Under the pieces are notes generated by a model, which ran no database searches, was not told the origin of the DNA, and was given only the letters and a program-made list of their open reading frames with translations. Made by a program: the position numbers and the translations under genes. Positions 32,685 through 64,000 of a DNA stretch of 64,000 nt are shown one piece after another. Position 1 is the first letter of the stretch. Every line of letters begins with the position of its first letter. Source of the DNA: an uncultured Candidatus Saccharibacteria bacterium (GTDB lineage Bacteria > Patescibacteriota > WWE3 > UBA101185 > UBA10185); NCBI GenBank assembly GCA_964643995.1, contig CAZXUJ010000002.1:114125-178124 (forward strand), in the 5' to 3' direction.

Positions 32685-32691
32685 TCTTTGG

Positions 32692-33276: not shown

Positions 33277-33391
33277 TTGGTTGCACCTCCTTTCGACAAT
33301 AATTTATTTTTGCAAATATGAAGTTCAGTTTGAGTAATTCGTAAAGTTTTCATTGGGCAGATCATTCTTAAGTAAGTATGATTTCTATCAA

Positions 33392-34306
33392 CTACTGTGT
33401 CAAGTTATCCTTTGAATAAAATGAGAAATCAAATACTGCCGGTGTGTAAGAGAAAGATTTAAACACTGTAACATCGCGGGCAATACCGTCTGTATTTACA
33501 AGTTCACCTCGCGTTGTGATTTTATAACCTTGCATAGGCAGGGCAGGGGTAGGGAACAATCGTCCATCATCTATAGCATCGCCTAAAGCTCTAATTCTTA
33601 ATCCCTGCGGGTCACTGACACCATTAGCACCTGAAACAACTACGGTGTAACAATGATCGTATTCTGGGTGTCCTGCGGAACTCCCGGAGGAAGCAGTTTC
33701 GGCATTGCCATAAGTCCACTGATGGCAATTTTGTGTGGAACAACGCACTATATCGTTTACGTTGTCTCCCAAGTCATTATAGACACGGTAATATAAATCA
33801 GCATTGCCATCCCAACATACTTCTACCTCAGGCTGACCATATCCATCCAAGAATATCTCTTTAACGTCATTTGCTGGAATTGAGAACACCGAGGAATAGC
33901 CATTGTCTGGATCAGTAACGTCATACTCCTCAACCGTAACTGCGGAACGCACCTCTATAGGATCTTGCCCGGTACCACTCTGTGCGGTAAAACGTACAAA
34001 ACATGTTCCGGAACTTGTAACCCATTCCCCACTTAAAATACCTGTGCATTCAGACGAACTTATACCATTAGTGGCCAGACTATCCAGATCGTTGTTACTC
34101 AGGGTCAAAGTTCTTTCTGCAGCTCCCTCAGCCGCGGCTAGAGCACGCTGTGAGGTATCCGTATCTGCGACAGTGGAAACAGAATTTATAGTTTCCAAGG
34201 ACAAACCAATACCCAAAGCTAAAGCTATAGTCATGGTTATAACAACAAACAACAAGGCCTGTCCTAATTCATTTCTTTTCAAGTCAATGTTTATCAAAGG
34301 TTTCAT
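33392..34306 (-). CDS. PilX-like pilus-associated protein (N-terminal TM + secreted domain)
   Basis: 'ELGQALLFVVITMTIALALGIGLS' N-terminus. No enzymatic motif, and it lies within the minor-pilin operon. Confidence 0.4.
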   Translation of the reverse strand: MKPLINIDLKRNELGQALLFVVITMTIALALGIGLSLETINSVSTVADTDTSQRALAAAEGAAERTLTLSNNDLDSLATNGISSSECTGILSGEWVTSSGTCFVRFTAQSGTGQDPIEVRSAVTVEEYDVTDPDNGYSSVFSIPANDVKEIFLDGYGQPEVEVCWDGNADLYYRVYNDLGDNVNDIVRCSTQNCHQWTYGNAETASSGSSAGHPEYDHCYTVVVSGANGVSDPQGLRIRALGDAIDDGRLFPTPALPMQGYKITTRGELVNTDGIARDVTVFKSFSYTPAVFDFSFYSKDNLTQ

Positions 34307-34326
34307 TGTGTTTCAATGATAACTAA

Positions 34327-36585
34327 TTATGGACTGACTTTCCATATGACATCTTGTTCCATTACTCCAGAATTTTCGGTCAACTCACGCCCATAAATTG
34401 GATTGTATTTGACAAGTGCCGCAGGATATAAGGCATTGCTTAACCCCAAATTGCGTCGAAGTTCAATGTTAACAGTAGTGACATCAGACGACCCAGCAAC
34501 AAAAGGTCCCTCTAACAAAATTATTTTGTCTGGTTGCCCAGGAAAATTGGGGGAATAGCTTGAACCAAAGGTTATAGTGTGCTGTGCAATTAACCCAATT
34601 TGTAAATGAGCAGGACTAGTGGCAAGGTTACCAATTGTTGCAACTGTGGTTCCTACATCAGGAGCAATATAGACCGGGCGCTGACTTATAATTAAAATAC
34701 GACGATCAGTATGTTGTGATGTAAAACTCTGAGGAAAAGTTAGTGAACCAGCACTACCAGTTACATATAGCACAGCCACACCAGCCCCACCACCAAGATT
34801 ATAGTCATCATTATTTAACAGATAGCTATTTACTAGGCCAATTTCGGCGCGATATACACGACCGGTTTGCATGGTGTTCAAGCCCTGCGCATTTGTAAGG
34901 TTGGTAGCACCCGCTGGGGGCGTAAAACTAAAGGTGGAAGGCCAAAATCCTCCAGTAAAACCATCTATATACTTACCACCCTCAACCAAACGATCTGGTG
35001 ACACCTGTATATCTTCACCAAAAACTGCTACTTCGCGACTTCCACCATGAAATGTCAGATAGGGCTCTACACCACTATTTGGTGCAACAACCCCAGATAC
35101 ATTCGCCGCGATAACTTCGCCGTATGTATCACCATCCAAACTTGCAAACCAACCGTCATCATAGGGATTCTCCAAGACATAACCAAAATTATACCCAGCT
35201 AAATTAGTGTTGAAATTGGCTACAGGTATAGAAGCAAGAGTAGGGCTATATGTCCATGTACCAGAGTTGCCAGCTTTTATACACTGGTATCTGTACTGAA
35301 TTCCGACAGCAGCCAAATCGGGATCATTGGAACTCACCACAGTTCTATTCAACGATACAGCTCCTGCAGCGCCAGGTAAGTTCGTAATTGTATAGTTGGA
35401 GTTTCCTGCATTAACATTTGCGGATCTGCTATAACTATACGTGGTAACATTAAACGTGGCAGTTACTGGGTCTGCAGTAAGATTGGCCACGGAATGCAAA
35501 CTTGATTGCCCAGCGACTGGGGTGCAGGTGTTCCCACTAACCGTGACATAATTCAAAGTACCACTTAAAGAATAAGGTGTACAGGTATTCACAAAAAATG
35601 CAGCACCGGGGACGTCTGCAGACAGCGCGCCATTCGCAGCTTCAGCTTGAACACTCCATCCTAGATATTGCCCGGGCACAAAAGACATAATCGCAGGCTG
35701 AATACCGATCGTTGCAGTACAGGTTGCACCATTACAGGAACCACTAGTGCTAGTATTTGCGCTTGGGGGAATATATCTCCACCAATCATTTGCACTCACC
35801 CATTCGGGATTAGTCAAATCCTCACGATTAACTCTCAAAATATATCTGACCGCACCCGGAACAGCAGTCCAATTGAATGTGCCAGTACGATAAGGTAAAT
35901 TGTTTCCGGGGTTTACGCAAACATCACTGCGACTTAAAATAACAGGATTTCCAAAAACTTGATATCTGAAGTTGCAATCGGTACCACAGTCATTAGATGC
36001 ATTGGCCTCTTGACTCTCATAGCTGGCTGAGTTTAGCGGGGTATGGGCACCAGAAACTACATTCCAACTTGCCGTATTGTTTGTAGTCTGAGCAGGAGGT
36101 ATGTACCCTGAAGGCGCAGTTTGCGGAGTTGCCATGTTACCTGGCACTCTTACGGCATAAGTATAACCGGCCTCTACGGCATTTGTGAAAACAAAGTAAC
36201 CATTACTGTCAGTGGAATCATAAATTGTTGTGTTAGTACCTGTATCATATAGAGAAACATTTACATTTTGAATCCCAACATTGGTATTAGCGTCCCGGAC
36301 ATAACCCGCAACAGTAATCATTATGTTGCCACCACCACAACAATAAGCACCAGGACACTCTGCATCCCAACCCGAGTTAGTGTTACATTGGTTATTATCG
36401 CAATTACAAGTACACCCATGATCTTCACAACAATCATGTCCCGTTGGAGGGCAAGTGTAACCAGCAGGACAGTCTCCACAGGTATGGTGCGCATAAACAG
36501 GTGAAGTAGCTGTAGAGGTAAAAGTAACAACTACAAAAAACCCAAACAAAACCAAAATATGTCTAGTAAAATTATTTTTCTTCAT
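34327..36585 (-). CDS. large secreted Cys-rich protein with CnaB/carboxypeptidase-regulatory-like beta-sandwich; candidate pilus-associated adhesin
   Basis: Signal peptide 'MKKNNFTRHILVLFGFFVVVTFTSTATSPVYA', a Cys-rich module 'CGDCPAGYTCPPTGHDCCEDHGCTCNCDNNQCN', then 'ITVAGYVRDANTNVGIQNVNVSLYD...SNGYFVF' (CnaB-like), then a long Thr/Ser/Asn/Gly-rich region. Confidence 0.55.
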   Translation of the reverse strand: MKKNNFTRHILVLFGFFVVVTFTSTATSPVYAHHTCGDCPAGYTCPPTGHDCCEDHGCTCNCDNNQCNTNSGWDAECPGAYCCGGGNIMITVAGYVRDANTNVGIQNVNVSLYDTGTNTTIYDSTDSNGYFVFTNAVEAGYTYAVRVPGNMATPQTAPSGYIPPAQTTNNTASWNVVSGAHTPLNSASYESQEANASNDCGTDCNFRYQVFGNPVILSRSDVCVNPGNNLPYRTGTFNWTAVPGAVRYILRVNREDLTNPEWVSANDWWRYIPPSANTSTSGSCNGATCTATIGIQPAIMSFVPGQYLGWSVQAEAANGALSADVPGAAFFVNTCTPYSLSGTLNYVTVSGNTCTPVAGQSSLHSVANLTADPVTATFNVTTYSYSRSANVNAGNSNYTITNLPGAAGAVSLNRTVVSSNDPDLAAVGIQYRYQCIKAGNSGTWTYSPTLASIPVANFNTNLAGYNFGYVLENPYDDGWFASLDGDTYGEVIAANVSGVVAPNSGVEPYLTFHGGSREVAVFGEDIQVSPDRLVEGGKYIDGFTGGFWPSTFSFTPPAGATNLTNAQGLNTMQTGRVYRAEIGLVNSYLLNNDDYNLGGGAGVAVLYVTGSAGSLTFPQSFTSQHTDRRILIISQRPVYIAPDVGTTVATIGNLATSPAHLQIGLIAQHTITFGSSYSPNFPGQPDKIILLEGPFVAGSSDVTTVNIELRRNLGLSNALYPAALVKYNPIYGRELTENSGVMEQDVIWKVSP

Positions 36586-36591
36586 AAAATC

Positions 36592-37236
36592 TTAGGGCAA
36601 CAATGCCTCCGAGGTTTCCAAAGCTTCTATTTCACGATCGTTTAAGATTCTGCCTCCGACTGAAACTTCTTTTGCAGAAAAACTGGCATCCTCGTTAACT
36701 TTAATGGTAACACCAAGAGTCACATCTTTAAACCTTTGCAACTTTTCGTAAACGGTAAGATCATAAAAGTCATTTGGAAAAGTATTGATATTGTTTGCTG
36801 GGGAAATCTCAAGGGACGCATCATAAGCAACTCGGATAGTTTGAAGCTTACCCGGATAAGATAATTCAAATTTATTTTCATCTACAGTAACCAACATACC
36901 AACAACTACAAGCTCACAGTAAGTATCTTGCCCAACCGTAACCAATCCTGACGAATAAACTCCAAATCCATCCTTTAGCGGATACGTAGATGCATATGTG
37001 GCACACAAAGCTGATAAATCATTGTTAGGTACAAGCATGACATTTGAATTACTTTTCACGAAATCAGGCCGATTCATCAGTACACCTGTAACAACAATTA
37101 AAACAACAATTAAGAAAAAAACGGCAATGTACACTGGTAAATAGGAGTGACTTGAGGATGGTTCGGGATGTTCAACGGCTAAAGAATCTTGGAAACTAGG
37201 ATTATTCTCCATATGGATATTTTTCCACATGGACAA
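36592..37236 (-). CDS. hypothetical single-TM protein at head of pilus operon
   Basis: 214 aa with one TM helix (YIAVFFLIVVLIVVTGVL) and no recognised motif. Confidence 0.45.
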   Translation of the reverse strand: MSMWKNIHMENNPSFQDSLAVEHPEPSSSHSYLPVYIAVFFLIVVLIVVTGVLMNRPDFVKSNSNVMLVPNNDLSALCATYASTYPLKDGFGVYSSGLVTVGQDTYCELVVVGMLVTVDENKFELSYPGKLQTIRVAYDASLEISPANNINTFPNDFYDLTVYEKLQRFKDVTLGVTIKVNEDASFSAKEVSVGGRILNDREIEALETSEALLP

Positions 37237-37370
37237 CCCATCGTCAATGATGTATACAAAAAAAATAATATACTATCGGTCTAGGAAAAAAGTTGCTATA
37301 ATTCAGAACTAGAGAGATTTGAAAATTTAATATTTTTCTGGATTTTGGAAATCTGGAAAAGGAGCATGAG

Positions 37371-38219
37371 ATGAACACGAAACGAATGAGTTTGATGATA
37401 TTGGTATTGTTTTTGTTATTGATTGTAGGTTGCGTTGCAGAAACTATACCCCCCACAAGGATTACAGTTACTCCAACGGAGGTTTGGAAACCGCTGGCAC
37501 CTGTGGTTATAGAAGTCGTACAGGCAACACTAGGCCCACCGGCAACACTGACTGCAGTACCAACGATAACCCGGGACCCAACGGATACCCCTGTACCAAC
37601 GGTTACAGCGACTGCTACAGCTACAGCTTGGCCAACGTGGACTAACACACCGATGCCAACGGCTACAGCGACTGCTACAGCTACAGCCTGGCCAACCAAT
37701 ACCGTAATGCCAACGGCAACCACGGGACCAACCAACACACCATGGCCAACGCTGGAACCAACCCCGAGTCCGACGGAAACGGCAGTTCCAACGGTAGTAG
37801 CTGCAGGTGGTAGCACAATTCCGTTCGGAACGCCACCCGAAAGCTTAGAAGCGTTGGTGGCATGCCTGGCCCCGATTTACATAACACCGTCTTACGAGAT
37901 GGTGGAATGGACAGGACAGGATGGTACTGTCTGGCACATGGAAAGAGGAAACCTGGCGTCAGTGGATCCAATTGGAAGAACGGTTACATTTGTGAACGGC
38001 GTTGTTGTTCAATATGACGCACCTGCAGTCTATGTGCGTTACCAACGCCAAAGCGGTAACTGGTGGGAATCACCGGAAAACTGGCAAGTTACACCTCAGC
38101 TTTTTACTTGGGAACAAGTTTTGACGGCCATGCAGTTGGCACTTTCCCAAGGTAAGGTTGTTGGCATCCAACGCATTACAGAAAACAGTAACACGTTGGT
38201 AATTTGCCATGCACACTAG
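37371..38219 (+). CDS. lipoprotein with Pro/Thr-rich tandem-repeat linker and C-terminal globular domain
   Basis: Good RBS (aaaaggagcatgagATG), a signal peptide plus lipobox 'LLIVGC', and a repeated 'PTVTATATATAWPT' module. The antisense ORF 37244..37816 is a shadow of the GC-rich repeat. Confidence 0.7.
   Translation: MNTKRMSLMILVLFLLLIVGCVAETIPPTRITVTPTEVWKPLAPVVIEVVQATLGPPATLTAVPTITRDPTDTPVPTVTATATATAWPTWTNTPMPTATATATATAWPTNTVMPTATTGPTNTPWPTLEPTPSPTETAVPTVVAAGGSTIPFGTPPESLEALVACLAPIYITPSYEMVEWTGQDGTVWHMERGNLASVDPIGRTVTFVNGVVVQYDAPAVYVRYQRQSGNWWESPENWQVTPQLFTWEQVLTAMQLALSQGKVVGIQRITENSNTLVICHAH
37596..37760 (+). repeat. tandem repeats of about 60 bp (2.5-3 copies) encoding a PT-rich linker
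   Basis: 'ccaacggttacagcgactgctacagctacagcttggccaac...' recurs at 37596 and 37656 with a few substitutions. GC is well above the window average. Confidence 0.6.
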
Positions 38220-38250
38220 TCTTTTTAAGTAAATAAGTAGGGAGCCTAGA

Positions 38251-38287
38251 AGGGCAGTGATCTTTATGAAAGGAGAATCACTGCCCT
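38251..38287 (+). terminator. stem-loop terminator downstream of lipoprotein gene
   Basis: 11-bp stem agggcagtgat / atcactgccct with a 15-nt loop, followed by a U-rich tail 'aagctttctg'. Confidence 0.45.
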
Positions 38288-38420
38288 AAGCTTTCTGTGG
38301 AGTAGGGGATACATTATATTTTTATAGCTAGGGAATTTTCAAGACCGATAATAATTTAATAGTCAAAGGAGGCCTGATCGTTTTTTAGGCAATTAGACCT
38401 CCCGGTAAACCTTTGGGATA

Positions 38421-39872
38421 CTAGTCACTAGACCTAACCACAAAGGGTAATAATGTTTCAAATCCAACAGGTGGTTCGGGGGTTACAGTAGGGGTAGGTG
38501 ACGGCGAGGGAGTGGGTGTGCTTGTTGGTGTAGGTGTTTCAGTGGGTACCACAGGTACTACATCAAGGAGAAACACATCCCAAGTACCGTTATTGTCACC
38601 TACAACAAGATTGGGCACTAATGACTCAAAAATCACACTATCTTGAGCAGTAAAAGCAGGGAAATGAGTTTTTTCCCCTTGACCACCACCACCAATCAAA
38701 AGAATGGTATGCCCATCCTTGTGAAGATATAGCCTACTTAGAAACCCCTGCACATTGGAGGTGAGATCAGACGCCATGGACTCGAAAACCACATGCCCTG
38801 AATCATTCACCGTGGCTCCAAAGAGTCCCGAATTGTTATCGGACTCACCACCAAAGCTATCCACAGACACCAAGGACAAGGTGTTACTGATGGTATCCAA
38901 CATATACACGTCGGAAAACCCATTGGTGTCTATAGAGGACAAATTCTCCGCAAACGACTGAAAAACTACATATCTGCCGTTTGGGGAAATCATAGGAAAT
39001 GAGCTTGAAGAGTCAGCAGGACCACCTTCAGTACTACGTACAACATACGACACTTCGTTGGTCGTAGAATCATAGAGGTATATGTCCTCAAATCCACTCC
39101 AAGCTCCAGTGGAAACCCAGTTACTGGCAGTGGACGAGAAAACAACACAAGACCCATCAAGATTAATTTTTGGTTCGTAGGACGCTCCGTTAGGTTCCAC
39201 ACCAAAACTTGGTACCAGACGCGAAAGTTCCCAAGTTACAACATTGCGCACGAAAATATCTGTGCGCAAGTTAGTATCCTCGGGAACGAGGTTTTTGGAG
39301 TCAGATGTGAAAACCACCCATTGGCCATTCCCTGATATTTGACTGCCACCAGAAAACCCGTCACCCTCTGCACCTGACCACGACGTCGAAACTCGAACAA
39401 CTTCTTGAGTTAGTGCATCCCAAACAAACACGTCAGGAGTTTGATTTGTATCATTTTCCACCAGATCAAAGGCATCTGAGGTAAACGACACAAACCGACC
39501 ATCTGCTGAAATTGAAGGATTCATGGAAGGGCCATTTGCCGGGCCATCACCACCTAAGCTATGGGACACTAAACAGATTTGCTGAGTTTGCATGTCTTTT
39601 AAGAAGATATCAGAGGCGTTATTTGTATCACCCACTACCAGATTATTGGCAAAAGAGTTAAATACGACGTAACGACCACTTGCAGATACAGCGGCAGATT
39701 GAGAGGCATTATTGCCAATAGTCCCCTCATTGTCAGCACTAACCAAAAAGACATCACCAAATGTTGCTTCAACGACTCCTGACGATACAAATATCATCAG
39801 AAATATAACCAACACGATAAAAACAATCCCACCCCGAAGGGTGGTTTCTCCAAACCGATTCACGGTATTCAT
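38421..39872 (-). CDS. N-terminally anchored TolB-like (PD40/WD40-like) beta-propeller protein with C-terminal PT-rich tail
   Basis: Repeated 'SxDGRxVxFxS...DIFxxD' PD40-like blades, an N-terminal TM helix, and the C-terminus 'TETPTPTSTPTPSPSPTPTVTPEPP'. Confidence 0.7.
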   Translation of the reverse strand: MNTVNRFGETTLRGGIVFIVLVIFLMIFVSSGVVEATFGDVFLVSADNEGTIGNNASQSAAVSASGRYVVFNSFANNLVVGDTNNASDIFLKDMQTQQICLVSHSLGGDGPANGPSMNPSISADGRFVSFTSDAFDLVENDTNQTPDVFVWDALTQEVVRVSTSWSGAEGDGFSGGSQISGNGQWVVFTSDSKNLVPEDTNLRTDIFVRNVVTWELSRLVPSFGVEPNGASYEPKINLDGSCVVFSSTASNWVSTGAWSGFEDIYLYDSTTNEVSYVVRSTEGGPADSSSSFPMISPNGRYVVFQSFAENLSSIDTNGFSDVYMLDTISNTLSLVSVDSFGGESDNNSGLFGATVNDSGHVVFESMASDLTSNVQGFLSRLYLHKDGHTILLIGGGGQGEKTHFPAFTAQDSVIFESLVPNLVVGDNNGTWDVFLLDVVPVVPTETPTPTSTPTPSPSPTPTVTPEPPVGFETLLPFVVRSSD

Positions 39873-39971
39873 TTTTTCGCTCCTATTGGATTTTTTGTTA
39901 AAGAGCTCGCAATAAGCAAGCCCTCCTTTTTTATAAAACGAGTAGTCTCAAACTCTAATGTACATTATAGG

Positions 39972-40856
39972 TCAAAAAAGTCCAAAATACCAATCAATCA
40001 ACATGTCACCCCAAAAAAGCATCACAAAACTCCCAAGGAGCAGAAATGGTCCAAATGGTACTGTATCCTTAATAGTTTTTCTCTTTGTCCAAACCAAGAG
40101 AATACTAAGCAAAGCACCAAAGAGAAAACCCAAGAATATGGCAAAGACATTATGGGGAAATCCATTAACAAGACCTATCAAAAAGGCCAATTTTACATCG
40201 CCACCACCCATAGCACGACCATTCTTTATAAGTGTAAGTAACCAAAAGAAAACACCGATGCCAATTGCACTTAACAAGATGTAAAGGTGATCCTTAAGCA
40301 CTGCCTGCCATTGTAAGTCCCAATATCCAGCCTTTATCAAGTATTTCCCAAAAGTATCGTTGTTTAAGCTCTGATAGGTATAGTAAAGTGAGAGCACCAT
40401 ACCAAGCACTAAGAAGGCAATAGTAACTAGGATTGCTGGAAATAAAACTTTATTGGGTAATAACAGATACTTTAGATCAGTTAAAAGCAATACAACATAA
40501 ACACTAAGCACAACTATCAAAAAAACGAAATACAACCAAGTAAAAGCAGTTGCTGTGTCTGAAAAGATCCCTATTTTATAAGCAGCAACTGCAAAAACAA
40601 AACCCGTTAAGACCTCTGAGATGGGGTAATACCAAGAAAGCTTCTTTTTGCAGTTTTTACAGGCACCTCTTTGAAGAAGGAAAGAAAATACTGGAATAAG
40701 TTCAAGAGCAGAAAGAACTTTGCTACAAAACTCACAAACGGAGCGACCTAAAAAGAAAGAACGGTTAGAGACGATTCTATCAGAGACAACATTTAGAAAG
40801 GATCCTATGAACAATCCTGCAATAAAAATCAATACGTATAAAACCCAAACAACCAT
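39972..40856 (-). CDS. pilD: prepilin peptidase PilD (A24 family aspartic peptidase / N-methyltransferase)
   Basis: N-terminus 'GSFLNVVSDRI', a CxxC...CxxC zinc motif, and the catalytic region 'GGGDVKLAFLIG'. Confidence 0.9.
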   Translation of the reverse strand: MVVWVLYVLIFIAGLFIGSFLNVVSDRIVSNRSFFLGRSVCEFCSKVLSALELIPVFSFLLQRGACKNCKKKLSWYYPISEVLTGFVFAVAAYKIGIFSDTATAFTWLYFVFLIVVLSVYVVLLLTDLKYLLLPNKVLFPAILVTIAFLVLGMVLSLYYTYQSLNNDTFGKYLIKAGYWDLQWQAVLKDHLYILLSAIGIGVFFWLLTLIKNGRAMGGGDVKLAFLIGLVNGFPHNVFAIFLGFLFGALLSILLVWTKRKTIKDTVPFGPFLLLGSFVMLFWGDMLIDWYFGLF

Positions 40857-40880
40857 AGATCAATTATATACTGCTTATTG

Positions 40881-40913
40881 CGCAAAAGAAAAGACCCCAT
40901 TACTGGGGTCTTT
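40881..40913 (-). terminator. Rho-independent terminator immediately downstream of pilA
   Basis: 9-bp stem aaagacccc / ggggtcttt with a 6-nt loop. On the minus strand it is followed by UCUUUUG. Confidence 0.65.
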
Positions 40914-40924
40914 CCTAATGAACG

Positions 40925-41437
40925 TTAGTTTATAAGATCTAAACCAGGGTCTGTACCCATTTCGTAAACAGCAGCGTTGTCTCCGCCATCTGTCGTCATT
41001 TTATTTGCATTATCTGCGGCTTCCAGAACAGAATTGACTTCATAATTTGTGCCGTCAGATGCCCATGAGTAGGTACCTGTAGAAGGATCAGCTGGTAAAA
41101 CCGAAACAAATTTACCAAGGCCGGTTAATCCTACAGGAATTGTGAATTTGACCCATCCGTTTGCGCCATCTACACCCTGTCTTGGGGTTGCTGCAGTACT
41201 GGTACATGTTGCACAAACACCACTAGTATCTGTTAAAACGATTTCACCATCAGCTAAAGCTAAGGTGACTGCCTTATTCAAGGCATCCATATCTTCTAAT
41301 CTCTGTGCATCACGGCCTTCTTGCAATAATTGAGCTGGGTTCAAAACAACAAGCACAGCACCTGCTAATACACCAATAATTGCGATAACGATGATAAGTT
41401 CTACTAATGTAAAACCTTTTTGATTTTTGTTAAACAT
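40925..41437 (-). CDS. pilA: type IV pilin PilA (likely major pilin)
   Basis: 'MFNKNQKG|FTLVELIIVIAIIGVLAGAVLVVLNP', 170 aa. It has its own terminator and is adjacent to pilC and pilD. Confidence 0.75.
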   Translation of the reverse strand: MFNKNQKGFTLVELIIVIAIIGVLAGAVLVVLNPAQLLQEGRDAQRLEDMDALNKAVTLALADGEIVLTDTSGVCATCTSTAATPRQGVDGANGWVKFTIPVGLTGLGKFVSVLPADPSTGTYSWASDGTNYEVNSVLEAADNANKMTTDGGDNAAVYEMGTDPGLDLIN

Positions 41438-41460
41438 TCAATTCACCTCCCTTCAATCAG

Positions 41461-42663
41461 TTAAATTGCCGATGTAATCTTATAAATCGGCGTAATAATT
41501 GAAATTATCAAAAAACCAACCATACTACCTAACATGATTAATATTAGCGGTTCCAAAGCAGCAGAAAGACCTTCGACGGCATGACTTGCTTCTTTCTCAA
41601 AGAAATCTGCCAAACGATCCAAAACCTCATCTAAACGACCGGTTTCCTCTCCTGTAGACACCATATTTCCCAGAATAGGAGGAAACGCATCGTTGCTTTT
41701 GAGATAAATAGACAAGGTTCCACCCTTTTCTATACTTTTGGCTGCCTCTAAGCTACCTTTTTTAAACTCAATGCTTTGGACAACATTTGCAACAATATGT
41801 AAAGAATCAACAATAGGCACTGCCGAGGACAACAACAGACTTAGAGTTCGGGTAAACTCAGTCAGCTCACGCTTATGGTTAAGATTTCCAAAAATTGGAG
41901 TTTTAAATGCAAGCAAGGTAACCAAATTTTTACCACCATCTGTTTGAAGGAAATATCTCATACCAAAAATGAAAAAAATGCCCCCGCCAATTACCAAAAA
42001 CACATTGTTAACAAAAAAGTCTGACATAGTAATCATTAACTGGGTTGTCGCAGGTAACTCCACATTTAAGCTTTCATACATATCGGCAAGTTTGGGAACA
42101 ACAAACAACATAAGCATGAAAAAGACACCGATCATAGCAATAAATATAATTGTTGGATAAATCATTGCGGACTTAAACTTAGCTCGTAATTCTCGCTGAG
42201 ACTCCATGGTATCCGCCAATCTGGCCAAGATCTCATCAAGCCTACCAGAGGCCTCACCCGCTGAAACCAGTGACTGATATGTGGCTGCAAATACGTCAGG
42301 ATATTTTCCAAAAGCGTTAGCTAGTGAGGCACCACCCTCTACATCACGCAGTATATCAGTGAGAATTTTCTTGAATTTCAGATTTGTGGTCTGTTCGGCC
42401 AAAACACTTAGCGCTTTAGAAATAGAGAGACCGGCCGAGATCATGGTGGAAAGTTGTCTCGTAAAGGCAACAACCTCACCGAATGGAACACCTCTAAATG
42501 TCATTATACTTTCAAATACAGAGTCGTTTTTCTTGTTTAGGGTCAAAACGAAATAGCCCTGTTCTTTCAGTAAAGAGAAAGCAGCTTGTTGATTACGTGC
42601 ATCAACAATACCATTCTTTCTACCACCTTTTTGGTCCATTGCGGTATAGGTAAATGCTGACAT
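41461..42663 (-). CDS. pilC: type IV pilus inner-membrane platform protein PilC (GspF family)
   Basis: Two tandem GspF repeats ('...ISAGLSISKAL...' and '...LSSAVPIVDSL...') and three TM segments, 400 aa. Confidence 0.9.
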   Translation of the reverse strand: MSAFTYTAMDQKGGRKNGIVDARNQQAAFSLLKEQGYFVLTLNKKNDSVFESIMTFRGVPFGEVVAFTRQLSTMISAGLSISKALSVLAEQTTNLKFKKILTDILRDVEGGASLANAFGKYPDVFAATYQSLVSAGEASGRLDEILARLADTMESQRELRAKFKSAMIYPTIIFIAMIGVFFMLMLFVVPKLADMYESLNVELPATTQLMITMSDFFVNNVFLVIGGGIFFIFGMRYFLQTDGGKNLVTLLAFKTPIFGNLNHKRELTEFTRTLSLLLSSAVPIVDSLHIVANVVQSIEFKKGSLEAAKSIEKGGTLSIYLKSNDAFPPILGNMVSTGEETGRLDEVLDRLADFFEKEASHAVEGLSAALEPLILIMLGSMVGFLIISIITPIYKITSAI

Positions 42664-42666
42664 ACG

Positions 42667-43737
42667 CTAGCCTCTCACTCCCTTTATCAATCTACGCAAC
42701 ATGTCTGGGCTAACTGAGAATTTCATTGCTTCTTCCTCAGTTATCTCCTCTCGATGCACCAACAAGGCAAGACTTGAGTCCAACCCGATCATCCCAATAT
42801 TTGAGCTTGTACCTATAACATTATCAAGCTGGTGCGATTTACCCTCACGAATTAGGCTACGAACAGCATCACTACCTAACATTATTTCTACTGCTGGTAC
42901 AACACCTGACTTTTTTGATGGAATTAATCTTTGGGACACTACAGCCTCCAAAACCTGAGATAACTGAAGCTTTATCTGCAATTGCTTAACCTCAGGAAAA
43001 CTACTAATCATACGATCTATACTTTGTGAAGCCGAATTAGTATGCATTGTTGCAAAAACTAAATGACCGGTTTCAGCAATCGTTAAACAGGACTGTGTAG
43101 TCTCGATGTCTCTAAGTTCGCCTATGAAGACTACGTTAGGATCTTGACGTAAAATAGCTCTCAAAGCACCATCCCAAGAATGAGTGTCCAAATACATCTC
43201 GCGTTGTTCAACTAACGACTTTTTATTAGTAAAAATATATTCGATTGGATCTTCAATGGTAACGATGTGCTCTGAACGAGTCTCATTGATATGATCTATC
43301 AATGCTGCTATTGTAGTAGATTTGCCATGCCCAGTAGGTCCTACAACCAATACCAATCCCTGACGTATATCACATAATCTGGTGATTATTTCAGGTAAGT
43401 TGAGATCCGTTAGCTTTGGAATAACCAATGGAATAACACGTAGAGCAACAGCAGGGTAACCCTTTTGGTAGAAAGCGTTGACCCTAAAACGAGCCTTATT
43501 ACTAAGTGCAACTGAAAAGTCTACCTCACGATTAACCTCCAAGATATTCTTTTGCTCTTCGGTCAGAACTTTGGACAAAAACAAGTTGATATCATCAACA
43601 GTGAGAACATCTGTGTCCTCAAGAGGGTAGAGTTCACGATCTACACGAACTACAGGAGAAATCCCAACAGTAAGGTGCAAATCAGAGGCTCCTTGTTCTA
43701 TTACATTTTCTAAAATTTTTGATACGTTAAACGCCAT
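42667..43737 (-). CDS. pilT: type IV pilus retraction ATPase PilT
   Basis: Walker A 'GPTGHGKSTT', 'HLVFATMHTNSA' His box, a PilT-typical length of 356 aa, and no N-terminal GSPII_E_N domain. Confidence 0.85.
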   Translation of the reverse strand: MAFNVSKILENVIEQGASDLHLTVGISPVVRVDRELYPLEDTDVLTVDDINLFLSKVLTEEQKNILEVNREVDFSVALSNKARFRVNAFYQKGYPAVALRVIPLVIPKLTDLNLPEIITRLCDIRQGLVLVVGPTGHGKSTTIAALIDHINETRSEHIVTIEDPIEYIFTNKKSLVEQREMYLDTHSWDGALRAILRQDPNVVFIGELRDIETTQSCLTIAETGHLVFATMHTNSASQSIDRMISSFPEVKQLQIKLQLSQVLEAVVSQRLIPSKKSGVVPAVEIMLGSDAVRSLIREGKSHQLDNVIGTSSNIGMIGLDSSLALLVHREEITEEEAMKFSVSPDMLRRLIKGVRG

Positions 43738-43776
43738 ATACTTTTGCCCTCGAAAAGCAGGTCTGTACTCAGATCG

Positions 43777-45552
43777 CTAATTATTTGCCACTCTCATAAC
43801 CTCTTCCAAGGTAGTAGCCCCTTCCACAACTCGTAAATAACCATCCTGAACCAAAGTAAGCATTCCATCAGCTATAGCCGCCTCAGCTATCATGTTTTCT
43901 GGCTTATGCTCAAGTATCATTTTTCCAATCTCATTGGACATTTCCAAAACTTCAAAAATACCTATTCGACCTTTATACCCAGAATTTCCACATTTATCAC
44001 AGCCTTTTCCTCGGGAGAGCTTTAGTTTACCCTTGCCAACTTTTGCTATAGTTTCTGCGATGATTTTGTCTTTGTGCATCAAAACTTCTGAGCTCTGAAC
44101 ATTTGCCAAAATTTTTCTTATATCCTTTTCAATTTCATCAGGTGCATCGTACGTCTCCTTACAATCGGCACAGATTTTTCTAACTAAGCGTTGAGCAAGT
44201 ATAGCGTTCACTGTGGATGCCAAAAGAAAATTTTCTACTCCCATATCTATCAAACGGGGGAGTGCCCCAGCCGCTGAGTTTGTGTGTAAAGTTGACAAAA
44301 CAAGGTGACCGGTCAAAGCAGCATGTATGGCAAGTTCTGCCGTTTCACTATCTCGAACCTCTCCTACCATTATTATATTTGGATCTTGTCTTAAAAATGC
44401 TCTTAGTCCAGAAGAGAAGGTTAGTCCAGCCTTGGGATTAACCTGAACGTGATTGACCCCAGGTACTCTAATTTCAACCGGGTCCTCAATGGTAACAACG
44501 TTAACCCTAACAGTGTTAAGTTTAGCTAAAGCGGTTGCAAGGGTAACGGTCTTACCCGAACCTGTGGGACCTGTAACAAGTACCATACCAACCGGCCTTA
44601 TTATTGCTTCTTCAAAACGCTTCAAAGATAAGCCGCGCAAACCAAGATCTTTATAGGTAAAAACATTACCTTGCTCTTTCAATAATCGAATAACCACCTT
44701 TTCACCAAATACTGTGGGTAAGGTTGAAACTCTCAAATCAGTGCCTGTGTTACCCACCTGTACTTTAAAACGACCGTCTTGAGGAATACGTTTCTCGTCG
44801 ATCTTCATGACCGAAAGTATCTTTATACGAGCAACAATAGATTCATGCATCTCCTTAGGGAATTTTCTTTTTTCTTGTAAAACACCATCAACACGGTAAC
44901 GTAATCTAGTATCAGATTCGGTTGGTTCGATGTGTACATCAGAAGCACCAATTTTTACAGCGGTTTCTAAGATCATACCTACAATACGAGCAATAGGTGC
45001 ATCTCTAATTGTTGCATCGTCGGCATTCAAATCGCCAGAATCACCTTTAAGCTGTAAAGTGGTAGCACTTATTTCTTCTAGTGCAGCACTAATTTCTTCT
45101 GAGATGGCTTTTCCTTGAACTTCACCTAATACCGCCTCTATCTCCTTAAGGGTCGAGATGTAGGGTTTTACAGTGTAGCCAGTTTTTCTTTCGATAAATT
45201 CAATGGTCTGGAGGTCTAGTGGATCAACCATAGCCACCGATAGAACGTTATCATTCATGTCTAACATAAACGGCGCTACTTGATATCTTTTCTCTACAGC
45301 AACAGGCAGTAACTCCAAAACATTTTGTTCGATTTTGACTTCTTGGGGATTAATATATTCAATGCCGTATACCTCACCAAAAGACTTCACAAAATCCTCG
45401 TTTGTGACGTAACCACGTTCTTTAATAATAGTCTCAGCACTCTTACCAGTATTTACATGTTCGAATTTAACAGCAGATAGCTGATCTGCATTTATGAGGG
45501 TTTTTTCGAAGAGAACGTCTTCTATTCCTTTATGTGCGTTTGTTGAATCCAT
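43777..45552 (-). CDS. pilB: type IV pilus assembly (extension) ATPase PilB (GspE family)
   Basis: An N-terminal GSPII_E_N domain, Walker A 'GPTGSGKT', 'HLVLSTLHTNSAAG', and a C-terminal tetracysteine 'CADC...CDKC'. Confidence 0.9.
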   Translation of the reverse strand: MDSTNAHKGIEDVLFEKTLINADQLSAVKFEHVNTGKSAETIIKERGYVTNEDFVKSFGEVYGIEYINPQEVKIEQNVLELLPVAVEKRYQVAPFMLDMNDNVLSVAMVDPLDLQTIEFIERKTGYTVKPYISTLKEIEAVLGEVQGKAISEEISAALEEISATTLQLKGDSGDLNADDATIRDAPIARIVGMILETAVKIGASDVHIEPTESDTRLRYRVDGVLQEKRKFPKEMHESIVARIKILSVMKIDEKRIPQDGRFKVQVGNTGTDLRVSTLPTVFGEKVVIRLLKEQGNVFTYKDLGLRGLSLKRFEEAIIRPVGMVLVTGPTGSGKTVTLATALAKLNTVRVNVVTIEDPVEIRVPGVNHVQVNPKAGLTFSSGLRAFLRQDPNIIMVGEVRDSETAELAIHAALTGHLVLSTLHTNSAAGALPRLIDMGVENFLLASTVNAILAQRLVRKICADCKETYDAPDEIEKDIRKILANVQSSEVLMHKDKIIAETIAKVGKGKLKLSRGKGCDKCGNSGYKGRIGIFEVLEMSNEIGKMILEHKPENMIAEAAIADGMLTLVQDGYLRVVEGATTLEEVMRVANN

Positions 45553-59363: not shown

Positions 59364-61619
59364 ATGCCAAGATCTTTCATGGATACAGAGATCAAATATG
59401 TTAACCATGTAATAGGGGATAAATCCCAAAACTCAAGTGCAAAAATAATAGAGATTTCAACAACTAATGCGGACAAATTGCGGGAATTTCAGAGATTACT
59501 ACCTAACTATCAGATAAAGGGTGTAAATCTAGACATAGATGAGATTCAATCATTGGATCCATATAAAGTGGTCGTTCAAAAAGCTAAGGATGCTTTTGAA
59601 AAAAACAACAATAATCCCATTTTAGTGGAAGACACCTCATTGGATATTCTTGGGTTAGGGGGGCGCCCGAGCACATTTGTGACGTTTTTTGTTTCAGATG
59701 TGGAAATTCGCAGACTTATAGCTGAAAATTGGCTAAAGAACAAAGATCGAAGAGCAGTCGCAAGAGTTATTTTAGCAATTTTTGATGGGAAAGAGGTCTT
59801 TACATTTGAGGGAAATACCTCAGGTACAATTGCAGAAACACTGAGAGGTGGTAATGGTTTTGGCTTCGATGACATATTTGTGCCCGAAAAATCTGATAAA
59901 ACGTTCGCTGAAATGTCAGATAAAGAAAAAGACATGCATTCGATGAGAAGAAAGGCAGCTGAAAAACTTATTGCTCAGAAACTAAAGCTAGGTGATTTAG
60001 TAGAGGAAATACCGGAGCCGTTTGAAAATGAGCTAAAACGAGTACGCAAGGAAAAGATAAATACTGACCCTAAAGCACTAAAATTCGCATACAATCTTGA
60101 AGCTATTCAAGGTAGCACCGTAAACGAAGCGTTCAGTGCAGATGTATACAAGCCAATTATCAAATCGAAAAACAAATACTACGATCGTTATACTTTGGAC
60201 AAAGAGTCAGCAAGTATAGGGCTTATAATAACTGATATTGATAAGGCAGGAATAAGACTGCACAGTAATGGAGAACCACGCCTTTGGCAAATGGGTCCCG
60301 AACGTAGAATGCTAGCGCTGGCTCAAAGAGCAGAATATTTTATGTGCAATGCCAGCCCAAACTTCCTCCAATATGTTAGGGGACTTGAAAAGAACAACTT
60401 CCACAAAAGAGTTAACAAGAGGAGCCCTTCTCTGGAAACAATACTAAAATATGATTTTACAGGCATTCCATTTAACACAAAGGCAATAAAGGAACTTGGG
60501 TATAAAAAACAAATTTCAGAAAAAAATTTGAGCAGACGCGCTATAGCCTCCAAAGGGCTGTTTAACAAGATTGGAAAATATCCAAGACTTATGTACGGTA
60601 TTGGCTCAATGCCTGCAGTTTCTGGATGGAGAGACGTTATTGTTACAGCAGCAATAGGGCATATGCCTGTGTTTGTTACTCGAAATAATGTTTTTGCTGG
60701 TGATACTAACTTACGGATAAATCTCATAAAACAATCTAAAGAATGTATAAGTGAACTAGGCATTAGAAAAAATTATCTTGATATAGTTGAAAGGAACATA
60801 GGTGTAGCAATCGGAACGGCTAACCCCAGGGAACAAGTAAATGAAGCGAAACGGTTTTTTAAGGAAGCAGGTGTAAGATTGTTTCGTATTTATACCATAA
60901 ACAGCGACCCTCGGTTCGTTGAAACAGCTGAACTATTGCGAAGTGAACTTGGCAACGAGATCGAAATTTTTGCCGGACAGGTAGTAAGTAAATCACAGGT
61001 TTACAAACTAAAAGATAAAGCCAATATAGACGGTGTAATGATCGGGCATGGTGGTGGGAGACAGTGTACTTCGGCAACAAATGGAATGGCGCTAACAACG
61101 GTTGAAGAAGTATATAGCTTGGTAACAGACCATAACTTCAACGACATAACTATTATGGTTGAGGGAGGGGTTGGCAGATCAGTCGGGGCGTTAGCCATAC
61201 TTGGGGTAGACGGTATCCTCTACAACCAGCAGTTTACCCGAGGTACTATTGAGACCGGAGGAATCTTTGTAAGGAACGATAACGACCAACTGGGACAACC
61301 CTATCATGGCAGTGCTAGTGCCACCACAATGATTATAGAATCAGCAAAAGATAGTCTAACGGACACAATGTTGAACTATTCAGGGAGAACTAAAGTCCCT
61401 GAGGGCAAAAAAGGTTTTACACTATACTCTGAAAAGGCAAACTCTATGGCGTTTTGGGTAGAGGAGTTTAAACATCAGTTAGCTAGAACGTATGCTGACC
61501 TAGGAGTGGAAAATGTTAGTGAGTTGAGAAAGTTTATTGCTTCTTACGACAAGGAATTACTGAGGATTGTATCCCCAGAAGCTGCAGAAACAGCTAAAGC
61601 TTACAAGAATAGGGAATAA
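59364..61619 (+). CDS. three-part fusion protein: N-terminal Ham1/RdgB (ITPase) nucleoside-triphosphate pyrophosphatase domain, a central unknown region, and a C-terminal IMPDH/GMP-reductase-family TIM barrel (no CBS pair)
   Basis: Ham1 motifs 'ISTTNADKLREF', 'VEDTSLDILGLGGRPS', 'FGFDDIFVP' and 'HSMRR'. C-terminal motifs 'IFAGQVVSKSQVYKLKDKANIDGVMIGHGGGRQCTSATNG' (catalytic-Cys loop, compare GIGPGSVCTT), 'MVEGGVGRSVGALAILGVDGIL' (compare DGGIRYSGDIVKALAAGA) and 'KVPEGKKG' (compare VPEGIEG). Confidence 0.8.
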   Translation: MPRSFMDTEIKYVNHVIGDKSQNSSAKIIEISTTNADKLREFQRLLPNYQIKGVNLDIDEIQSLDPYKVVVQKAKDAFEKNNNNPILVEDTSLDILGLGGRPSTFVTFFVSDVEIRRLIAENWLKNKDRRAVARVILAIFDGKEVFTFEGNTSGTIAETLRGGNGFGFDDIFVPEKSDKTFAEMSDKEKDMHSMRRKAAEKLIAQKLKLGDLVEEIPEPFENELKRVRKEKINTDPKALKFAYNLEAIQGSTVNEAFSADVYKPIIKSKNKYYDRYTLDKESASIGLIITDIDKAGIRLHSNGEPRLWQMGPERRMLALAQRAEYFMCNASPNFLQYVRGLEKNNFHKRVNKRSPSLETILKYDFTGIPFNTKAIKELGYKKQISEKNLSRRAIASKGLFNKIGKYPRLMYGIGSMPAVSGWRDVIVTAAIGHMPVFVTRNNVFAGDTNLRINLIKQSKECISELGIRKNYLDIVERNIGVAIGTANPREQVNEAKRFFKEAGVRLFRIYTINSDPRFVETAELLRSELGNEIEIFAGQVVSKSQVYKLKDKANIDGVMIGHGGGRQCTSATNGMALTTVEEVYSLVTDHNFNDITIMVEGGVGRSVGALAILGVDGILYNQQFTRGTIETGGIFVRNDNDQLGQPYHGSASATTMIIESAKDSLTDTMLNYSGRTKVPEGKKGFTLYSEKANSMAFWVEEFKHQLARTYADLGVENVSELRKFIASYDKELLRIVSPEAAETAKAYKNRE

Positions 61620-61723
61620 CTGTTGGTGGCGAACAATACAGAGATTTATGTATCATTCAACACCAGATAAACGCTAATAACCAATAAAACCGATGTGGCT
61701 TTTTACAACATCCACAACCATGG

Positions 61724-61993
61724 CTACATAGCGCCGCAAAATGAACTGCCCAGAGGGAGATGCATTAGGCCCACCAATAACCTCAAAAATGGCGTCAGCC
61801 AATCGTTGTAAAGCGGATTCAGTACAGCTACAGAATTTTCCATAAGTTCCTGTTGTAAGTGGGTAAACACCAGGCCACCTTTGAAAAACAAGCCCACAAT
61901 GATAACTACACAAAACACCAAAAACTTCACTACTGGATGGACTCCACTACGCACACTGCCTATCACGTTTCCACCATATATCGTTGTACTCAT
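61724..61993 (-). CDS. hypothetical small membrane protein (possibly disrupted; an overlapping minus-strand ORF sits in another frame)
   Basis: Strong RBS (aaggag, 8 nt, ATG) and one TM helix. The 61674..61913 ORF in a different frame overlaps it, which suggests a frameshift or a gene remnant. Confidence 0.3.
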   Translation of the reverse strand: MSTTIYGGNVIGSVRSGVHPVVKFLVFCVVIIVGLFFKGGLVFTHLQQELMENSVAVLNPLYNDWLTPFLRLLVGLMHLPLGSSFCGAM

Positions 61994-62089
61994 TGAATTT
62001 TCTCCTTGCTCTTACGAGCCTAGTTTAAGATAAGCACATTATAAATATCTGAACACAAAATTCAACTAGGTGGGGTAGGGGAGTAGAGC

Positions 62090-63118
62090 TTAGAGTAAAC
62101 CGGTAATGGGCGCAGTATTATCGGAATTAGTCACGTCTTTGGCTTCTGTTTCAATATCTTTATGAAATTTGGAGTGGACCTCCCGCAAACGCTCATTGGT
62201 AACATGCGTATAAATTTGCGTAGTCGAGACACTTGAGTGCCCCAGTAATTCCTGGACACTGCGAATATCCGCACCGTTAAGCAACAAATCAGTAGCAAAT
62301 GAATGCCTAAGCGTATGTGGAGTAGCATCTACGCTAATACCAGCACGTTGAGTATATTTTTTTACCATTCTTTGAACACTCCTTACGCTTAGGCGCAAAG
62401 ATTCTCCTTCTTTGTCATTATTTTCCATGAGTTTGCCAGAGTAACGTAAAAAAAGGGGGTTAAAGGGGTCTCGCCTAGTATTTAAATAGCTTTTCAGCCA
62501 GTGTATAGCTGATTTACTAAGATAAACTGTGCGTGGTTTACGACCTTTACCAATTACCGTAAATTCCCCGGATTCAAGATTAACATCATCAATATCTAAA
62601 GCAACAAGCTCACTTACACGCAAACCAGTGCTAAATAAAGTTTCAAGTATTGCTCTATCACGTATTCCAGAGCGTTTGTTAAGGTTTTGCACCTCGAATA
62701 GATTCTTTAGTTGAGCGTCATCCAAAAACTTAGGAACACTTGCCTCCTGCTTACCTAGTAATATTTGGTCTGGCGACGGTACATTTAAATTACGCTCTAC
62801 AACAAGGTACTTAAGAAAAGCCCTCACAGCAACTAAAAATATCTTTTGAGTGTTTTTTTTGTATTCTTCGTGACTCTTGGACGAAATTCGTCGGTTCAGG
62901 TAAACACGATACTTACGAATTAAGTCATGAGACAAATCATCTATTTCAATGGTTTCTTTTTTTAGATGCTCCTTGGACCACTCAAAAAAATCTTTTAAAT
63001 AAAAATCGTAATACTTGAGGGAGCTCTGCGCGAGATTCTTTTCAATTTCACAGTACTCTAAGTAGTCAGTGATGAGCTTATCTAAGTGAGCAGGCATGGG
63101 TTCATGATAGCACATCAT
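62090..63118 (-). CDS. tyrosine site-specific recombinase (XerC/XerD / phage-integrase family)
   Basis: An N-terminal SAM-like core-binding domain and the C-terminal catalytic motif 'HTLRHSFATDLLLNGADIRSVQELLGHSSVSTTQIYTHV' (R...HxxR...Y). Confidence 0.8.
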   Translation of the reverse strand: MMCYHEPMPAHLDKLITDYLEYCEIEKNLAQSSLKYYDFYLKDFFEWSKEHLKKETIEIDDLSHDLIRKYRVYLNRRISSKSHEEYKKNTQKIFLVAVRAFLKYLVVERNLNVPSPDQILLGKQEASVPKFLDDAQLKNLFEVQNLNKRSGIRDRAILETLFSTGLRVSELVALDIDDVNLESGEFTVIGKGRKPRTVYLSKSAIHWLKSYLNTRRDPFNPLFLRYSGKLMENNDKEGESLRLSVRSVQRMVKKYTQRAGISVDATPHTLRHSFATDLLLNGADIRSVQELLGHSSVSTTQIYTHVTNERLREVHSKFHKDIETEAKDVTNSDNTAPITGLL

Positions 63119-63688
63119 GAGTATGGAGTTATCTTTTTGATAAAAATCGATTGTAGGGCATTATAGAACGCGATGAGTACTTTATGTTGTCATAACAAGT
63201 TTTTGTGTGTATGTGCTAGTCATTTTAAGCTAGAGTAAGTAACATAGTGAGGTGGTAAGACGTAGAGTTGGGAATTTTACGGGAATTATAAAAGTCGGAG
63301 AAGATAAATTATTTAGGGGCATCCTGATATAAATAGAGTAGAAAAGAGCTACTAGAGTATTAAGCACACAATAGATCAACAATAAACAAAAAATTTAAAT
63401 TGTTAATTAGAATTAAATATATTAAAGAAGGGAAGTTATCATTTGGATCAATTCCGCGCGTCGTTAAATGTATGTTTAACGGCATCTAGGCTGAGCAGCC
63501 TATTGGAAGAGGGCATATGGAGGGAATAGAGTACCTAAATAAACCCTTCCGAAACAAAGCACTATAAAGCCTTAATTTCAAGTATATTTATTTGTTATTT
63601 CTGCCTATTTTCGTGATATTTTTCAGTTACATTAAATCCTATAGAAATCGAATCCGTCAAATATAGATATCCACATCAAAATAACTAG

Positions 63689-63759
63689 TATGACAAACCT
63701 ACTATGACAATCGTAATTATGACAAACGTACTATAGGTTATCATACTGCCCTATAGGTT
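63689..63759. repeat. cluster of short direct repeats (TATGACAA x3; ACTATAGGTT x2) in an AT-rich ORF-free region beside the recombinase gene
   Basis: TATGACAAAC at 63689, TATGACAATC at 63703, TATGACAAAC at 63718; CTATAGGTT at 63731 and 63751, with a palindromic CTATAG core. Confidence 0.4.
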
Positions 63760-64000
63760 GCTAACCTCCCCTGCTCCATTAATGTTAGGTAAGCATTTGA
63801 ACACTCTTGTTACCTGTTATTGCAGCAAATAATTATAGAAAAACTTTCTAGGGCCTGAACAAAATTAATAAAAATAGAAATATTAAACTTATAATTCCAT
63901 ACTCTAACAATAGCCTCAAATTGATGCGGTTTTTATAATGCCCTTGTACATACCCCAACCCAAACATTATTACTGTTGATACAAATAAGGCACGCAAAAA

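Follow-up and report, generated by a model that had tools for sequence, protein, structure and literature searches.

A candidate dif-like recombination site in a conserved module upstream of the xer gene of WWE3 and other Patescibacteria

A stretch of 64,000 nucleotides from an uncultured Candidatus Saccharibacteria bacterium (WWE3 lineage of the Patescibacteria), called here the window, carries near its right end a gene for a Xer-type tyrosine recombinase (xer) on the minus strand, and upstream of this gene a long intergenic gap. From sequence comparison, we regard the gap as probably a conserved module, acting at the DNA level and built around the recombination site used by the neighboring Xer. 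The candidate site is a 28-bp palindrome resembling dif, 341 bp upstream of xer. It was absent from the original prediction for this DNA, which had drawn attention to short repeats in the same gap, and was found through comparative alignment. The proposal made there, that a dimer-resolution site lies beside a lone xer, is supported by this palindrome and by matches to published dif sites 40–650 bp upstream of xer in other Patescibacteria, whereas the flagged repeats themselves are not the crossover site. The public contig L001, which matches the window with 0 mismatches over 11,911 bp, extends the view beyond position 64000, so that about 73 kb could be surveyed in total.

The site is composed of two imperfectly inverted 11-bp arms and a 6-bp centre, the same layout being found in all relatives, and 11-bp arms around a 6-bp centre are the defining layout of dif (PMC2958812, PMC5357621). 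Between positions 7–12 and 17–22, five out of six pairs of the inner arms are complementary, and the site thus agrees with the published palindrome rule of more than four complementary pairs in this region (PMC3025954). The arms are near-palindromic, each having an outer CGTCG, which would fit the binding of both by a single protein. In the 64-kb window the site is unique even when up to three mismatches are allowed (0 expected), a second copy was not found in the 73 kb, and each related locus has one copy. It is intergenic and, like the sites of gene-linked single-Xer modules, adjacent to the recombinase gene: the distance from site to xer is 269–576 bp in eight of the nine other WWE3-type loci, and 1237 bp in locus L109, where an open reading frame (ORF) of 269 aa intervenes. 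In the alignment of the gaps, the mean column identity is 42% with sharply conserved islands within, and the strongest island is a 24-nt consensus on the xer-sense strand, TCGTTAAACATACATT(TA/AT)ACGACG. This core follows the consensus exactly in six of the ten genomes (Xer 66–92% identical) and deviates from it by 2–3 differences in the other four, including the window with three. The WWE3 consensus, ACGTCGTATAA TGTATG TTTAACGACAT, has the same base as Escherichia coli dif (GGTGCGCATAATGTATATTATGTTAAAT, taken from PMC3025954) at 16 of 28 positions, and at five of six positions in the centre.

Much closer matches to known dif sites are found in other lineages of Patescibacteria. A canonical dif profile, derived solely from nine dif sites in the literature (PMC2731167, PMC3025954), gave its best hit, of 18–22 bits, 38–654 bp upstream of xer in six other Patescibacteria loci, and eight of the ten best profile hits of at least 10 bits were inside the xer-upstream zone, which makes up about 8% of the scanned sequence. 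In L028 and L035, 18 consecutive bases of the site are the same as in Erwinia dif (for example, ACTTCGCATAATGTATATTAATCCACGT). Furthermore, a profile of the WWE3 sites, and then one of all Patescibacteria sites, revealed intermediate forms at the same position in about twenty loci, from Woesebacteria, Levyibacteriota, Falkowbacteria, Magasanikiibacteriota, and others. The pattern nnnTCGnAnAA-TGTAnn-TTnnnCGAnnn is common to the WWE3 consensus and the canonical-like Patescibacteria sites. These comparisons indicate that linkage between xer and dif is the rule in Patescibacteria, and that the WWE3 site is a diverged, more symmetric version of dif. A full-text literature search yielded no description of a dif site or of a Xer system in Patescibacteria.

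The tyrosine recombinase named in the original prediction is confirmed as a protein of 342 aa with a Phage_integrase domain (PF00589, E = 2.9e-44) and an N-terminal SAM-like core-binding domain (PF02899/PF13102). No arm-binding domain was detected by Pfam; the protein has the SAM-like and catalytic domains only. In NCBIfam it scores 253 bits with XerC, 253 with XerD, and 219.6 with XerA, all below the equivalog cut-offs (220 in the case of XerA), and its 142 bits with the XerS model, against a cut-off of 267, place it outside XerS. The nearest solved structure is E. coli XerD (1A0P, E = 6e-46), while the match to XerH is far weaker (E = 1e-16) and does not suggest membership in that group. There are more than 8000 homologues, the best 120 of which are 63–75% identical, three closer ones excepted, and the named ones among these 120 are from Patescibacteria, mostly from candidate division WWE3. 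R167, K191, H268, R271, H294, and Y303, which we take to be the catalytic set of the tyrosine recombinase family, are invariant in 28 homologues, and the candidate site therefore appears to have a cognate, catalytically intact Xer-type recombinase beside it. Only this xer gene was found in the 73 kb. The protein appears, from its sequence, to be the conserved Xer of WWE3-like Patescibacteria, single-copy-looking over this range. Among the matches listed by a scan of genome contigs with the alignment, most were distant relatives. A metagenome search with the single recombinase protein returned relatives of 27–40% identity only, and the loci of close relatives were collected by exact-protein matching.

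The region in question had been described as an ORF-free stretch of about 880 bp downstream of the recombinase gene. It lies upstream (5′) of the gene, and the part of it that is truly intergenic is 63119–63847, or 729 bp. The last 153 bp of the window are coding: they are the end of a gene on the minus strand for a 275-aa membrane protein (L001 8444–9271), which ends at window position 63848 and has no Pfam or NCBIfam family. Beyond this gene, L001 encodes ruvC, yebC, a TPR protein, a DUF87/TrwB-like ATPase, rluD, two receiver proteins, lspA, and lgt. The gene order yebC-ruvC-membrane protein-[gap]-xer-(IMPDH/Ham1)-rnhB-gyrA is preserved in nine other genomes, with Xer proteins that are 66–92% identical, and in these nine relatives the gap, 615 to 1626 bp long, is without a conserved gene.

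The flagged repeats, three evenly spaced copies of TATGACAA and two of CTATAGGTT, are found exactly where they had been reported, at 63689, 63703, and 63718 (spacing 14 and 15 bp) and at 63731 and 63751 (spacing 20 bp). TATGACAA has nine copies in the window on both strands, compared with 3.3 ± 1.9 in shuffled sequences, and four of the nine are within the gap, namely the three in a row and an inverted copy at 63187; the cluster is not a product of chance. In the xer-sense reading, the order is CCTATAG(G) twice and then (GTAnGT)TTGTCATA(CTT) three times. In all ten WWE3-type genomes, two to four copies of TTGTCATA in a single orientation are located 209–335 bp from the dif-like site, and 0–2 copies are present elsewhere in each related locus (the other 4–20 kb), with repeat number and spacing differing between genomes. 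Nine of the ten WWE3-type loci have CCTATAG one to three times at the corresponding position. In L003 a single copy, oppositely oriented, lies amid the TTGTCATA repeats, and in Microgenomatia-type loci CCTATAAT/TATAGG takes the place of CCTATAG. The recurrence of the repeat module in related genomes, proposed earlier as a check, was indeed seen beside xer in ten of them. A second copy of the repeats was not found within the 73 kb, and over the same range TTGTCATA, with nine copies only, has no skewed polarity like that of FtsK-orienting polar sequences (KOPS). Since the flagged elements are direct repeats 200–300 bp away from the core, they are not the recombination site, and since the recombinase has no arm-binding domain, they are not its arm-type sites, as had also been suggested. 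Their conservation suggests that they are functional and ancient elements flanking the crossover site. The features of the module are collected in Table 1.

Table 1. Features of the xer gene, the upstream module, and its border in the window.
Feature	Coordinates	Strand	Basis
Xer-type tyrosine recombinase gene, 342 aa	62090..63118	-	Pfam PF00589 + PF02899/PF13102, NCBIfam, structure match, homologues
Block C: hairpin TTGTTATGACAA with inverted TTGTCATA copy at 63187-63194, then ..CTAnAATGCCCTAnAATCGATTTTTAT	63134..63203	-	relatives
Fast-evolving spacer, pyrimidine-rich on xer-sense strand; conserved islands AATTCCCG, CTCTATT	63204..63457	-	purine fraction, alignment
AATAGAGTA, left copy of direct repeat around dif-like site	63332..63340	+	repeat search; CTCTATT island on xer-sense strand conserved
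dif-like core site, GCGTCGTTAAA TGTATG TTTAACGGCAT, 11-6-11	63458..63485	.	sequence reading, conservation in relatives
Spacer from dif-like site to DnaA-box-like motif; includes 60-100 bp very AT-rich tract	63486..63666	.	sequence, alignments
AATAGAGTA, right copy of direct repeat around dif-like site	63525..63533	+	repeat search; ACTCTATTCC conserved in relatives
DnaA-box-like 9-mer, TGTGGATAT on xer-sense strand	63667..63675	-	perfect TGTGGATAA in relatives
Three TATGACAA repeats, TTGTCATA on xer-sense strand; unit about GTAnGTTTGTCATACTT	63689..63725	-	sequence, relatives
Two CTATAGGTT repeats with palindromic CCTATAGG core, 20 bp apart	63731..63759	.	sequence, relatives
G-rich element, GGAGCAGGGGAGG on xer-sense strand; left module border	63765..63777	-	conserved G-rich tract, WWE3 + Microgenomatia-type loci
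3′ end of 275-aa multi-pass membrane-protein gene; bounds the module, outside it	63848..64000	-	L001, synteny in relatives

Between the repeats and the core site, all ten WWE3-type genomes have a DnaA-box-like 9-mer, in the same orientation and at a distance of 192–227 bp from the dif-like site. Seven of them carry the perfect form, TGTGGATAA, and three a form with one mismatch; the perfect form is also present in L020 and L022 (at -173), L007 (at -317), and L013. Degenerate DnaA boxes with up to two mismatches are not enriched (42 observed, 36 expected), and the box is a single conserved one. In all relatives, a tract of 60–100 bp between the box and the site is very rich in A and T. On the xer side of the site, the spacer has a purine fraction of 0.30–0.40 in the eight WWE3-type loci measured, and blastn cannot align it even with L109, a relative with 92% identical Xer, although its length is kept. 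Beyond it, block C, which also has ..AATGCCCTAnAATCGATTTTT beside the inverted TTGTCATA-like hairpin, is 95% identical to its counterpart in L109 over 63 bp with unalignable sequence adjoining it, and 6–9 relatives retain it, at +262 to +367 relative to the dif-like site. In L109, block C stays on the dif side and the 269-aa ORF parts it from xer. Block C may be the promoter of xer, or it may mark where the module ends on the right. The blastn homology between the window and L109 ends exactly at the edge of the dif-like site (L001 9660/L109 2761, window about 63459); past this edge the sequence is not kept over 255 bp while the length is, and the 95% identity comes back in block C. The order of elements, that is, the G-rich tract, CCTATAAT/TATAGG, TTTTCACG repeats, GATATAG, TGTGGATAA, dif, and the pyrimidine-rich tract, is kept beyond WWE3 in Woesebacteria, Levyibacteriota, and two further lineages, whose Xer proteins are only 45–48% identical.

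These features suggest how the module may work. The apparently sole Xer of these small genomes would form a dimer on the site at 63458–63485, binding its two 11-bp arms, which are nearly identical. When sister chromosomes have been joined to a dimer by homologous recombination, the two copies of the site would pair, and a recombinase tetramer would exchange strands across the 6-bp centre TGTATG, restoring monomers. The three TTGTCATA and two CCTATAGG repeats, the DnaA-box-like motif, the AT-rich tract, and block C would be protein-binding elements flanking the core. Most likely, accessory or architectural proteins bind to these elements and regulate the recombination reaction or xer expression, by analogy with the accessory sequences of the plasmid sites cer and psi. 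The latter likewise combine a core site with a one-sided array of conserved protein-binding sequences, though they belong to plasmids and the locus described here is chromosomal. Accessory sequences of the cer/psi type could impose resolution selectivity without FtsK.

Several observations weigh against the recombination-site reading. On the published XerCD dif profile, in which the XerD arm TTATGTTAAAT is the most telling part, the window site obtains -8.0 bits and ranks 1535th in the 73 kb. Because the site fails this canonical sequence test, its assignment rests on architecture, conservation, position, and the intermediate forms in relatives. Its G+C content, 11/28 or 0.39, is not below the average of nearby windows (0.36–0.41), unlike that of classical dif. 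The flanking array is located 190–390 bp from the core, further than the cer/psi accessory sequences (0–180 bp), and the role proposed for it is one by analogy. Finally, strand asymmetry does not switch near the site: no change is seen across 63 kb to one side or 9 kb to the other, nor, in the relatives, within 4–6 kb on either side. A skew check for the terminus had been suggested in the original prediction; within the range that the data cover, its outcome argues against a terminus here.

Compared with known Xer systems, the module shares something with each. Like XerCD/dif, it has a 28-bp site of 11-6-11 layout with A/T-rich inner arms and a centre, TGTATG, close to the TGTATA of that system, XerD is the closest structure, and the sites of sister Patescibacteria match the published-dif profile; the differences are the apparently single recombinase, the near-palindromic arms, the position beside xer, the poor profile score of the window site, and the lack of an asymmetry switch nearby. 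XerS/difSL of streptococci and lactococci also has a single recombinase and a site immediately by the gene in one module (PMC1914069, PMC5357621), but difSL is 31 bp long with an 11-bp centre and is located at the terminus, while the present site has a 6-bp centre and its recombinase is not an XerS equivalog. XerH/difH of epsilon-proteobacteria shares the single recombinase, palindromic arms, 6-bp centre, and frequent gene linkage (PMC2731167), but difH has an unrelated sequence and is found close to the skew maximum, and the present recombinase matches XerD better. Archaeal XerA/dif has a single recombinase and a highly symmetric 28-bp site, its conserved flanking sequences or inverted repeats have been suggested to bind partners, and its position is not always tied to termination (PMC2958812, PMC3020120); however, the dif of Thermococcales is not beside xerA, and the organism here is a bacterium. 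The kind of Xer/dif system proposed here is one with apparently a single recombinase, a canonical 6-bp centre, gene linkage, a conserved 650-bp module including a DnaA box, and no terminus signature within the reach of the data.

The strand asymmetry leads to an alternative, in which the module is or includes a replication origin, with dif adjoining it because the chromosome is copied in one direction or very asymmetrically. Since raw GC skew mirrors gene orientation here and is uninformative on replication, skews at third codon positions were used instead. In the window and L001 1–9271, A exceeds T at third positions on the plus strand of the window in 62 of 63 genes, in either gene orientation (52 genes over 63 kb on one side of the site and 11 over 9 kb on the other), while the third-position GC skew (GC3 skew) is about zero over the same range of at least 73 kb; the one-signed asymmetry is carried by A/T. 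The leading strand is usually rich in G and T, and we infer that the replication fork may travel in the direction of xer with the terminus more than 63 kb further on. The lack of a switch near the site speaks against both a bidirectional origin and an exact terminus. In L022 1–8917, the plus-strand GC3 skew is +0.30 to +0.56 in all six genes, on both strands and both sides of the site; this skew, and also that of L020, is similar to the disparity in G/C between strands that has been published for Microgenomates UBA1400 genomes (PMC7143001). For whole Microgenomates genomes, Kadnikov et al. (2020) reported a monotonic cumulative GC skew and proposed that origin and terminus are close together or that theta replication is unidirectional (PMC7143001).

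A DnaA box and an AT-rich tract beside dif are what this idea predicts, and in none of the genomes examined does the asymmetry flip at the locus; the box is conserved in orientation and position, with direct repeats before it and the tract after it. In WWE3 and Microgenomatia-type genomes, dif would then be embedded in an origin-like element with the origin beside the terminus, the chromosome would be copied essentially one way, and the oriented TTGTCATA repeats would be a one-way barrier or initiator sites. We nevertheless regard an origin as unlikely, and this one-way scheme as improbable. The module has an AT-rich tract but only the single DnaA box, with neither a cluster of boxes nor an asymmetry switch nor linkage to dnaA: no dnaA signature was found in six-frame translations of the 64-kb window or of any related locus, and no dnaA or dnaN is seen among Pfam-annotated neighbors within 4–10 kb in any locus or in the window. 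Moreover, the AT-rich tract is on the 3′ side of TGTGGATAA, opposite to its place in the oriC of E. coli and Bacillus subtilis.

It is also unlikely that the palindrome and repeats serve only transcriptional control of xer, as an operator, tandem promoters, or a DnaA-regulated promoter, with the palindrome having no role in recombination. TGTCATAAT does look like an extended -10 element and CCTATAAT/CCTATAGT like -10 hexamers, and one promoter-like match overlaps the first repeat, but such matches number five compared with 4.8 in shuffled sequences. Block C is placed 20–40 bp before the xer start in several genomes, and in other lineages the site itself is 40–70 bp before xer; yet the module is intact in L109 and L007, although another gene parts it from xer, and an 18-base match to published dif in sister lineages is not what one would expect of an operator. 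Autoregulation and recombination are, in any case, not mutually exclusive.

A large structured RNA of about 650 nt, not yet described, whose islands would be single-stranded motifs and whose palindrome would be an internal hairpin, is very unlikely to be encoded in the gap. Ordered islands with variable spacers do persist across the lineages with distant Xer proteins, as they might in an RNA. The G-rich 5′ element (63765–63777) is often complementary to a C-rich stretch 160–240 bp past the dif-like site (window about 63290–63320), including L013, L022, L114, L117, and L122, each with lineage-specific sequences; the duplex z-scores of -0.4 to -2.5 are not significant. However, searches of the window and five related loci against Rfam, with gathering and permissive thresholds, gave no family match even at E ≤ 10 except two sub-threshold hits, RAGATH-32 (20 bits) and SAM-V (17 bits), which were dismissed as chance-level. 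The whole module folds no better than shuffled sequences on either strand (z = -0.13 and -0.45), no compensatory or covarying pairs were detected by RNAalifold in the repeat block, and a 250-nt tract with 30–40% purines cannot pair extensively. No tRNA or tmRNA is present in the 64-kb window. The lack of an Rfam hit, the shuffle-like folding, the lack of covariation, the varying number and spacing of the repeats, and the purine-poor tract together point to a module acting at the DNA level.

An integrated phage or integrative and conjugative element (ICE) typically shows itself by a tyrosine recombinase next to an AT-rich gap that contains direct repeats, the repeats being arm-type sites or iterons, and the original prediction had offered the edge of such an element as its other option, but this is hardly credible, as the sequence beyond 64000 refutes an integrase-and-attachment-site module: housekeeping genes stand on both flanks in synteny across more than ten genomes, the Xer is highly conserved and has no arm-binding domain, neither the site nor the repeats have a second copy in the 73 kb, and no viral contig carrying the dif-like site was found.

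With the gap taken as the recombination module of Xer, several neighboring features may be described. An 867-aa DUF8128/DUF87/TrwB-like ATPase of the HerA/VirB4/coupling-protein type is encoded near ruvC, dif, and xer (L001 3458–6061, about 67058–69661 in window numbering), as in several relatives, and may be a partner acting as a DNA translocase; FtsK was not seen in the window. An opposite-strand ORF of 141–269 aa is inserted between the dif module and xer in L109 (3110–3919), L007 (3199–3930), and L028 (3472–3897), none of which has a family match, and the window genome has no such ORF. On the 3′ side of xer, a variable stretch of 470 bp (61620–62089) contains an 89-aa hydrophobic ORF (61724–61993, minus strand) without a family match, in place of which the close relative L109 has a 176-aa ORF. 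Next to this stretch, 59364–61619 encodes a 751-aa fusion of a Ham1-type nucleoside-triphosphate pyrophosphatase and an IMPDH/GMP-reductase-like barrel; some relatives share the fusion, and others have only the barrel. Further away, a type IV pilus block (about 39972–45552) is located inside a 19-kb run of minus-strand genes (about 26173–45552). In the large contigs of L116, L119, L120, and L122 (630 kb to 1.11 Mb), the xer locus is 70–105 kb from the high-coordinate end and always reversed, which may reflect a common assembly break or rotation point, or coincidence.

A large part of bacterial diversity belongs to Patescibacteria (the Candidate Phyla Radiation), and little is known about how their chromosomes are maintained. 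The present analysis provides a concrete candidate dif site for these bacteria and points to xer-dif linkage as a lineage-wide rule. In one large branch, the module of 650 bp that surrounds the site is deeply conserved and includes a DnaA box, and no asymmetry switch is visible near it. This arrangement bears on how chromosome dimers may be resolved in very small genomes and on whether their resolution would depend on FtsK or on accessory factors. It also bears on where replication starts and ends in these genomes and on the puzzle of the one-signed skew of Microgenomates; if true, the unlikely arrangement of an origin beside the terminus would provide a sequence-level explanation of this monotonic skew (PMC7143001). 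In addition, the 28-bp site is a landmark for curating metagenome-assembled genomes.

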